Of a stretch of 47,728 bases of DNA, positions 5,024 through 5,517 are shown piece after piece. This DNA is from Escherichia coli. GTDB taxonomy: Bacteria > Pseudomonadota > Gammaproteobacteria > Enterobacterales > Enterobacteriaceae. Each line of letters begins with the position of its first letter. Within the stretch, counting starts at the first letter, position 1. The notes below the pieces were generated by a model. That model searched no databases. It saw only the letters and a program-made list of their open reading frames with translations, and was not told where the DNA came from. Position numbers and translations under genes: made by a program. The DNA lies in NCBI RefSeq assembly GCF_003334765.1, contig NZ_QOWT01000031.1; one strand, 5' to 3'.

Positions 5024-5057
5024 TGCTGCCGTTAATTCAGCGATCACATTGAATACT

Positions 5058-5115
5058 CTTATTGTTGTTGGGGATATCCAGATTAACCGAATCCTTGTTG
5101 TTGGGGAATAACCAG
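5058..5115. repeat. Two imperfect direct repeats about 23 bp each, 33 bp apart (core TTGTTGTTGGGGA)
   Basis: Core at 5062-5074 and 5095-5107, each followed by a similar (A/T)AT..CCAG tail. Confidence 0.55.
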
Positions 5116-5332
5116 GTCCACCTCGCCTGATGTGGCTAAAAGCAGGCACATAACAGCTAAGTATTTTCAACCAGAGAGAATCCTTAGCGTTGTGGTGAAT
5201 GCGGCTCAGCGCACGCGGGTTAAGGTTGAGGCTGACAGTCGACCTTCTGTGGATACCCACCCGCCTGGTGTGCAACCTTCGCCAGGCACCGGGAGGCACC
5301 CGGCACCACAACTTTATGCTGTGTGTAGTCCT

Positions 5333-5380
5333 GGCGGTACCAGTTTGTACCCTTGCTTCCGGCTGGTACCGTCCTTTTTT
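5333..5380 (+). terminator. Strong plus-strand hairpin with U-tract (intrinsic-terminator-like)
   Basis: 11-bp stem (5333-5343 pairing with 5363-5373, one G-U), 19-nt loop, followed by CTTTTTTG. Confidence 0.5.
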
Positions 5381-5470
5381 GCAAAACAGAGAAGAGCATC
5401 ACCGGACGACGGGCTCATAACCCAATCCATCCGGGCGGCTGCCACCGCAGGTGTTCTTCTCTGTTTTGTG
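5381..5470 (+). other. Long stem-loop (13-bp perfect inverted repeat enclosing 61 nt) just upstream of the yfdP-like start; candidate structured leader or ncRNA element
   Basis: CAAAACAGAGAAG (5382-5394) is the exact reverse complement of CTTCTCTGTTTTG (5456-5468); GC-rich interior with smaller hairpins. Confidence 0.4.
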
Positions 5471-5517
5471 GAGAAACCAACCGACCTTGCAGGGTCGATA
5501 TGATGAGGAGCAGCAAA

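Follow-up and report, generated by a model that had tools for sequence, protein, structure and literature searches.

A probable small RNA of the STnc100/PasD/KilS type and a second conserved RNA element ahead of yfdP in a lambdoid prophage of Escherichia coli

The structured gap ahead of yfdP

The DNA analyzed in this study (the window) is a stretch of 47,728 nucleotides (nt) from Escherichia coli contig NZ_QOWT01000031.1 that represents a lambdoid prophage resembling SfV, ST64B, and e14. In its early-left operon, a gap of approximately 460 base pairs (bp) at positions 5040 to 5500, which is 100% identical to Escherichia phage PhiR49_1 over this region, separates a gene on the opposite strand from yfdP. 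An earlier note had described this gap as GC-rich and highly structured, and the description holds; i.e., the GC fraction is 0.55 to 0.58 over positions 5100 to 5599 compared with 0.40 to 0.46 in the flanks, and all of the features described there are present at their places. We consider it probable that the gap holds a variant of the STnc100/PasD/KilS small RNA (sRNA) family that is embedded in the operon, lacks an annotation, and has its own terminator of the KilS/DicF type, followed by a second conserved RNA element. The locus is a variant of a known RNA family and not a new antitermination device.

The core of the plus-strand RNA (positions 5189 to 5312, approximately 124 nt) takes the shape of a five-helix pseudoknot that belongs, by its Rfam match and its pair counts, to the STnc100/PasD family. 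The closing helix P1 (5189-5197/5304-5312) is followed by the trinucleotide AAU, the hairpin P2 (5201-5205/5211-5216, with a bulged A5213), the pseudoknot segment, a variable insert, and the hairpins P5 (5263-5270/5280-5287) and P6 (5289-5293/5299-5303), and this order is that of the common architecture. The pseudoknot segment (5222-5228) pairs with the loop of P5 (5273-5279) as AAGGUUG/CAACCUU. P6 is an invariant hairpin, CCGGG-AGGCA-CCCGG, with AGGCA as its loop, and it abuts the 3' strand of P1. A reading of the structure adds helix P4 (5249-5252/5257-5260), and a P3 candidate in the subclass of the window (GCGGG 5215-5219/CCCGC 5260-5264), found by eye, competes with P2. Since G-U pairs are frequent in the core, the plus strand is the RNA strand. 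Upstream of the core, a conserved piece at 5119 to 5156 (plus strand) forms a hairpin GCCUG...CAGGC that is common to SfV and phiES15 and is partly present in Rac upstream of KilS.

The Rfam model of STnc100 (RF02076) aligns over its full length (model positions 1 to 206 of 206) to positions 5159 to 5382 in a permissive scan, with 40.3 bits and an E value of 7.2e-7, which is under its gathering threshold of 47 bits. Sister copies in phiES15 (40.6 bits), ST64B (35.1 bits), P1 (33.4 bits), and e14 (29.2 bits) are also under 47 bits. The low score is explained by P2, which is completely compensated between two classes of the family, i.e., CCC-CC/GG(A)GGG in the canonical class and GCG-GC/GC(A)CGC in that of the window. 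The core helices and the conserved 5' and 3' blocks of STnc100 are all found within positions 5189 to 5312, and at least 120 IMG/VR contigs contain an exact copy of the invariant 22-mer CACCGGGAGGCACCCGGCACCA (5287-5308), with flanks that differ widely among them.

Conservation of the pairing across related prophages had been named beforehand as a check, and the helices P1, P2, P5, and P6 of the core, as well as the three-way element described below, covary. Pairs on these four helices were counted in an alignment of 30 diverse core sequences, including that of the window, from which the variable insert was removed. Paired cells amount to 93.2%, compared with 37 to 44% when the partners are slid; in 18 of the 28 pairs both sides have changed, and the observed values are not reached by any of 500 shuffles. 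For the covariation score, 0.508 is obtained, compared with at most 0.147 for slid partners. P6 also covaries (CCGGG/CCCGG and CCUGG/CCAGG). The pseudoknot columns are, by inspection, out of register between subgroups, and the pseudoknot was assessed by comparing cognate with non-cognate pairing, which gave means of 6.9 bp and 4.5 bp, respectively. Other versions of the pseudoknot are CCAGUC/GGCUGG, AUCAGC/GCUGAU, GAACUG/CAGUUC, and CAGUUAA/UUAACUG.

The 3' module (5291 to 5380, plus strand) is of the KilS/DicF type according to local alignment and fold statistics. It includes a single-stranded linker UUUAUGCUGUGUGUAGUCCU (5313-5332), which contains UGCUGUGUGUAGUCC, and an intrinsic terminator at 5333 to 5380, which the earlier note had recognized as a hairpin with an 11-bp stem and a U-tract. 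The stem is formed by GGCGGUACCAG (5333-5343) and CUGGUACCGUC (5363-5373), followed by six U residues (5375-5380); its fold has a predicted free energy of -20.5 kcal/mol (z = -3.7), and none of 200 shuffles is as stable. The promoter and terminator scan missed this hairpin because its loop is 19 nt. An intrinsic terminator 25 to 60 nt after the core, as in STnc100, is thus present in the window. In phiES15 and ST64B, the linker (UUGCUGUGUGUAGUC) is kept and unrelated terminators stand at the same place; because these two phages and most canonical members end in diverse terminators, it is termination after the core that is itself conserved.

Over positions 5291 to 5379, the module is identical to the K-12 Rac sRNA KilS (b4833) at 71 of 84 positions, with compensatory changes in the terminator stem. 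The local score of 72 lies approximately 15 standard deviations above that of 500 shuffles (18.9 +/- 3.6). Because its 5' end aligns to P6 of the core, KilS looks like a 5'-truncated copy of a unit of core, linker, and terminator. For DicF, the local score is 41 compared with 18.9 +/- 3.8 for shuffles (approximately 5.7 standard deviations above), and the Rfam DicF model (RF00039) gives 15.7 bits at 5320 to 5374 (E = 3.2), under its gathering threshold of 48 bits; a distant relation to DicF is possible on these alignments.

The region is non-coding. Its only sizeable frame, of 123 codons (5132-5503), is a homologue of the annotated K-12 e14 gene ymfH and has an Arg/Pro-rich composition. Frameshifts or stops break it in SfV, e14 (when compared with the frame of the window), ST64B, phiES15, P1, and mEp460, and the nucleotide sequence and structure stay alignable where the frame breaks. 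The statement of the earlier note that there is no credible open reading frame (ORF) is thus correct, and the conserved small ORF that it had named as the finding that would speak against an RNA is absent. In e14, ymfH (L131, 3576-3887) coincides with the RNA core, the terminator, and the three-way element, and its annotated start codon lies on helix P1. As the frame is not conserved, ymfH is probably a misannotated RNA locus.

Two classes of the core and the element that follows it

Canonical members of the family carry TTGAC-17/18-TAnnnT ending 6 to 8 nt before P1, start at P1, and have a strong terminator; they are stand-alone sRNA genes, some of them followed by a reverse-oriented terminator. 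In most of them, diverse terminators are found 25 to 60 nt after the core. No adjacent promoter is present in the window, ST64B, P1, and the contigs L011, L022, and L057. The window belongs to a promoter-less class marked by GAAUGCGG, which was found in at least 120 further contigs, and all tested copies of this class are below the Rfam threshold. Its core usually ends 30 to 42 nt upstream of a start codon, mostly with no terminator between; the terminator is retained in the window, e14, SfV, ST64B, and phiES15.

The genes downstream of GAAUGCGG cores, which mostly specify cell-division inhibitors, encode DicB (approximately 45 loci), KilR or Kil, the TerB-like TciA of P1, a Rha-like regulator, a YdaE-like protein, and a small membrane protein. 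The dicF-dicB gap (L364, 636-809) and the kilS-kilR gap (L365, 1231-1405, minus strand) of K-12 MG1655 are each filled by a complete GAAUGCGG core that ends 30 to 35 nt before the start codon of dicB or kilR. At one locus of the dicB type, DicF lies approximately 20 nt upstream of the core. P1 has a complete core in the ban operon just before tciA (L003, 2504-2623), with a compensated P1 helix (GCGGUG/CACCGC) and AAGCA as the P6 loop, and this operon further contains a region resembling dicF as well as three tRNA genes. Literature searches on ymfH and on dicF, dicB, and kilR yielded no description of the core.

The second conserved element directly follows the terminator in the window. It is a three-way RNA element (5382 to 5468, plus strand) with an outer stem (5382-5401/5449-5468), an inner arm (5402-5406/5430-5434), and a second hairpin (5435-5438/5445-5448). 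The 13-bp perfect inverted repeat reported earlier is the perfect core of longer arms (5382-5405 and 5445-5468) of 24 nt that are 83% complementary, and the element ends approximately 37 nt before the ribosome-binding site (RBS) of yfdP. The 93 nt from 5380 to 5472 fold with -46.6 kcal/mol (z = -6.2), and compensatory changes occur in 10 of the 31 consensus pairs across phages of E. coli, Salmonella, Klebsiella, and Pantoea. The inner arm carries GACGGGCUCAUAACCCAAUCC in an anticodon-type stem-loop GGGCUCAUAACCC (5411-5423), which presumably matches the anticodon arm of initiator tRNA-fMet, i.e., three G-C pairs and the loop CUCAUAA. In Klebsiella phages, the motif stands directly after tRNA-Asn or tRNA-Arg genes (e.g., in Chronis; L248, 1205-1275), and in Pantoea phage PA-1 it adjoins an STnc100-like start. 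Assignment as a tRNA or pseudo-tRNA was rejected, since ARAGORN found no genes in 5000 to 5700 and the Rfam tRNA model had no match at E <= 10; the resemblance to a tRNA is confined to the anticodon arm. The three-way element could be a relic derived from a tRNA, a signal for processing, or a decoy.

A small hairpin (5482 to 5497, plus strand) identified by eye lies upstream of the yfdP RBS, and its stem CGACC/GGUCG is, again by eye, replaced by GGCGG/CCGCC in the corresponding place of ST64B, Kp4866-6, and Eeyore. In mEp460 (L129, 2353-2490) and many Stx2c phages, only the terminator, the three-way element, and yfdP are common with the window; the upstream core of mEp460 is much more divergent (GUUGUGGUGAAUGCGCAGG...CCGGAGAUCAGCACCGGUCACCACAAC) and lies under an annotated minus-strand ORF.

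Prophage setting, opposite-strand gene, and pL leader

A cI-like repressor gene (3643-4317, plus strand) and its terminator (4329-4348) are directly followed by a candidate early-left promoter (4357 to 4384, plus strand), which reads TTGACA-16-CATAAT (11/12 in the consensus scan). It is overlapped by an operator-like sequence of the GTACC type, ATGTACC...GGATACAT, that resembles the OR-type operators ATGTACCTCCGGTATACAT and TTGTACCTTAACGGTACAA of the cI-cro interval (3560-3630), and on these grounds the site is a putative pL. The order of repressor, terminator, promoter, and conserved leader is the same in SfV, ST64B, SPN3UB, ZF40, and pAEv1818. On the 3' side of pL, the opposite-strand gene and the gap are followed by yfdP (ATG 5518; phrog_204), with the RBS GAGGAG at 5505 to 5510, and by yfdQ, yfdR, and the remainder of the early-left operon. 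The ORF list contains no N-like ORF between pL and yfdP, and terminators lie on the path of the pL transcript, both as noted earlier; in ST64B, at least two terminators precede the yfdP homologue.

Gathering-level Rfam matches elsewhere in the prophage (31059-31193 and 9501-9574, both on the minus strand) are to STnc480 (87.6 bits), ES036/CssrF (38.1 bits), and a tRNA gene (72.1 bits). C4 antisense RNA and isrK are matched on the right-operon side of related phages (ST64B, L004 409-597, minus strand; L155), and no such match is found near 5040 to 5500 in the window.

The opposite-strand gene (4532 to 5047, minus strand) is an accessory gene of phrog_1244 (E = 2.4e-58 in the PHROG match) with unassigned function and a terminator at 4493 to 4474 in the terminator scan. 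GTG 5047 is favored over ATG 5023 as its start codon because, with the latter, the profile is matched only from its position 9 onward. Immediately upstream of this start are two direct repeats (5062-5074 and 5095-5107), each the exact 13-mer TTGTTGTTGGGGA on the plus strand, so that the mRNA of the gene reads UCCCCAACAACAA twice. Of the pair of 23-bp repeats proposed earlier, the exact 13-mer stands, with 33 nt from start to start; the length of 23 bp was generous, as copies of 18 nt are only 72% alike. SfV, SfII, and e14, in which the shared sequence begins at 5118, lack the repeats, which therefore travel with the minus-strand gene and not with the RNA unit. By position, they would belong to the 5' leader of the opposite-strand gene, in which they may serve as CA-rich (ARN)n leader sites. 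The suggestion that the gap is the regulatory region of this gene accordingly fits the repeats at 5062 to 5107 and nothing else in the gap.

At 4474 to 4508 (plus strand), the hairpin AAGCGCCCUACAGGACGCUU, which doubles as the terminator of the minus-strand gene, is directly followed by AGCTCTTTAACAATC, and this arrangement is found only in phages that carry the accessory gene. We take AGCTCTTTAACAATC to be a near match to the boxA consensus of rrn operons and lambdoid phages.

Just 3' of pL, a leader RNA motif of 57 nt (4404 to 4460, plus strand) consists of the invariant 22-mer GGCAGGACGCCCACGAAGUAGC (4408-4429), a hairpin (CCUGGA 4432-4437/UCUAGG 4448-4453), and then AUGAUUC. The hairpin loop in the window is GCAUAUGAAG; the consensus loop, GGCAUAYGAAnn, is constant, and AUGA trails the hairpin. 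At least 120 IMG/VR contigs carry the 22-mer, with 63 distinct hairpins, in which the 5-bp stems covary (CCUGG/CCAGG, CCGGU/ACCGG, UCCGG/CCGGA, CCGAC/GUCGG, and CUACC/GGUAG, among others) and the loop is constant. The motif lies just 3' of pL in phages whose immunity regions are unrelated, with hosts ranging from Escherichia to Aeromonas and Pectobacterium, and many N-less temperate phages carry it. It occurs as a single copy in the window, has no match in Rfam 15, and has no similarity to the putL set. It is a better candidate for an RNA antiterminator than the gap at 5040 to 5500.

Interpretation and comparison with known systems

The idea that the gap encodes a prophage sRNA, one of several raised earlier, is backed by positions 5189 to 5380, where a complete core of the STnc100/PasD type precedes a linker and terminator of the KilS/DicF type. 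In favor of expression, the e14 copy appears under the name ymfH alongside the other e14 genes in the YmfT iModulon (PMC12133099). The analysis shows that the gap is non-coding, how it is structured, that it belongs to the family by structure and sequence, and in which genomic contexts it occurs; for the window sRNA, we infer the transcript ends, Hfq dependence, targets, and source of read-through. Transcription from pL (4357-4384), or from a local promoter, would stop at the 5333-5380 terminator and release an RNA of approximately 190 nt, possibly trimmed at the 5' end, whose 3' hairpin and U-tail would provide the usual Hfq-binding end. The RNA would act in trans by base pairing through the linker, as reported for KilS, DicF, and PasD, and the conserved core would be a structural or protein-binding scaffold. 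The terminator and the three-way element would at the same time form a barrier that polymerase reads through to express the genes from yfdP to xis-int. Most likely, the early-left transcript would end at 5380 with release of an sRNA of the Hfq type, and read-through into yfdP-int would then need help from elsewhere.

Several observations weigh against this reading. The window copy does not reach the RF02076 gathering threshold. A consensus scan of positions 5040 to 5190 found no sigma-70 promoter on either strand; the promoter with a start at P1 that is typical of STnc100 is thus lacking. By-eye promoter candidates (CTGATG-16-CATAAC) were rejected as weak and not conserved in phiES15. The extreme conservation of the loop and junction nucleotides is not explained by a role in base pairing. 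The terminator-less spacing of the GAAUGCGG class looks more like that of a cis-acting leader than that of a trans-acting sRNA gene. Furthermore, the data on targets and on accumulation as a discrete Hfq-dependent RNA come from the relatives PasD and KilS.

Some of these points lead to a serious alternative that is possible, though on the doubtful side, in which the core is a cis-acting leader (riboswitch-like, protein-binding, or involved in processing or stability) that gates the next early gene, here together with a terminator that attenuates yfdP-int. The promoter-less class places its core 30 to 42 nt before the start codons of seven different genes, usually with no terminator, and several of these genes are toxic to the host (DicB and KilR/Kil, which are FtsZ inhibitors, and P1 TciA). 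The filling of the K-12 dicF-dicB and kilS-kilR gaps by the core is consistent with such a leader, and the combination of invariant junction and loop nucleotides with variable stems and a pseudoknot is typical of ligand- or protein-binding RNAs. On the other hand, canonical members stand alone with their own promoter and strong terminator; the terminators after the core are unrelated in sequence and at variable distance, and thus no conserved alternative pairing is apparent. In addition, the short spacing to the start codons may merely reflect compact mosaic junctions, and no ligand or protein partner is known.

A processive antitermination RNA of the put or nut type, which would let pL transcription pass the 5333-5380 terminator and which the earlier note had favored, is very unlikely. 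The operon has no recognizable N gene and has terminators ahead of its early genes, and a highly structured nascent RNA lies just upstream of a terminator. Nevertheless, the gap has no similarity to HK022 putL or to annotated homologues; BLAST with putL recovers annotated put phages only, with a match set that does not overlap that of the leader motif, and the put assignment was dropped for 5040 to 5500. A permissive Rfam scan finds no STnc100-like element in the pL-nun or cro-cII regions of HK022. The core starts approximately 800 nt after pL, in contrast to putL, which adjoins its promoter (PMC9378689), and the separate conserved leader motif holds the putL-like position. The core is neither directly 3' of pL nor present as a second copy 3' of pR, the window containing no second copy. 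There is no boxA or boxB in 5040 to 5500 and no N-like Arg-rich protein between pL and yfdP; the only boxA-like string, at 4494 to 4508, lies outside the gap. The relatives accumulate as terminated sRNAs (PMC8550237, PMC8175672), which is the opposite of what is expected for an efficient antiterminator in front of its own terminator. It is less probable still, to the point of being nearly negligible, that the region codes for a small protein homologous to YmfH (frame 5132-5503). In RefSeq, the e14 homologue is recorded as protein YmfH and comparable frames as hypothetical proteins. In a screen, the retron-Sen2 toxin was triggered when a ymfH clone was overexpressed (bioRxiv 10.1101/2020.06.22.160242), which could be an RNA effect. 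The breaks in the frame where nucleotide-level structure is kept, the annotated start on P1, the Arg/Pro-rich composition, and substitutions that compensate base pairs all oppose coding, and the ymfH-like ORF was rejected on its broken frames.

As an sRNA of the STnc100/PasD/KilS type, the locus is ordinary in kind for a prophage. Its significance lies in the whole promoter-less STnc100 subclass, which remains unannotated since it falls under the Rfam threshold and which is misannotated in K-12 e14 as ymfH. Two hitherto unexplained gaps of K-12, dicF-dicB and kilS-kilR, are also filled by this subclass, immediately in front of two classic inhibitors of cell division encoded by prophages. A unit of core, linker, and terminator appears to have KilS and, less clearly, DicF as its 3' modules, which links four separately named sRNAs. 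The covariation-supported pseudoknot and the invariant loops of the core point beyond a pure base-pairing role. In addition, N-less phages related to SfV, ST64B, and Gifsy share a leader RNA at the putL position, which makes read-through of early terminators directly testable. A more far-reaching proposal, which we regard as speculative and unlikely, is that the core is a new cis-acting module for sensing or processing by which early genes of prophages are gated (the cell-division inhibitors dicB, kilR, and tciA among them, as well as yfdP in the window), with DicF, KilS, PasD, and STnc100 as by-products or derivatives of one ancestral unit, and that, separately, the motif at 4404 to 4460 represents a new class of RNA-only antiterminators of N-less lambdoid phages, put-like in function and unrelated in sequence.

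The window RNA shares with STnc100 (RF02076), PasD1, and PasD2 the core architecture, the invariant UGGUGAAU... and CACCGGGAGGCACCCGGCACCA, the subsequent linker and intrinsic terminator, and the location in a prophage. It differs in its score below the gathering threshold, its compensated P2, and its lack of an adjacent sigma-70 promoter. STnc100 and PasD sit in the late region near stx or nanS-p, with STnc100 copies downstream of stx2 (PMC12370729), whereas the window copy is in the early-left operon. PasD1 and PasD2 are among the most abundant Hfq-bound sRNAs of enteropathogenic E. coli; they were verified by northern blotting, are Hfq dependent, and have partners detected by RIL-seq, i.e., ligation and sequencing of interacting RNAs (PMC8550237). 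A 2026 preprint from the Storz laboratory relates PasD to STnc100 by structure and describes their function as not elucidated (10.64898/2026.05.13.724894).

KilS, which lies in the 5' untranslated region of kilR in Rac, was found by Hfq RIL-seq, with yncL as partner, and verified by northern blotting (PMC8175672). Its linker UGCUGUGUGUAGUCCUGGCGG and terminator are homologous to those of the window, and both RNAs are encoded in the early-left operon after an opposite-strand gene. KilS starts within a degenerate core relic, whereas a complete core precedes the module in the window; in Rac, a second, intact core and then kilR come after KilS, whereas the unit in the window is followed by the three-way element and yfdP.

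DicF (RF00039) in the dicB operon of Qin is likewise a terminator-shaped module in a prophage early operon beside the same core, and its central UGGCGGUAUCAGUUUUAC resembles UGGCGGUACCAGUUUGUAC. The order is DicF, core, and dicB in Qin and core, module, and yfdP in the window. The segment of DicF that we take to pair with the ftsZ RBS, UUUUACUCC, is changed in the window. DicF is described, in work cited by PMC6212723 and PMC12197685, as processed from the dicB operon transcript.

The putL and putR elements of HK022 resemble the window locus in that both are structured nascent RNAs of a lambdoid early operon that lacks an N gene and has terminators before its early genes. The put BLAST set comprises HK022, HK75, O276, HK639, phiEt88, and others, and leaves out the phage group of the window. 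The put RNA is a V shape of approximately 70 nt with two stems (PMC9378689), whereas the core in the window is a five-helix pseudoknot of approximately 124 nt, and the two also differ in position and in the single copy found here.

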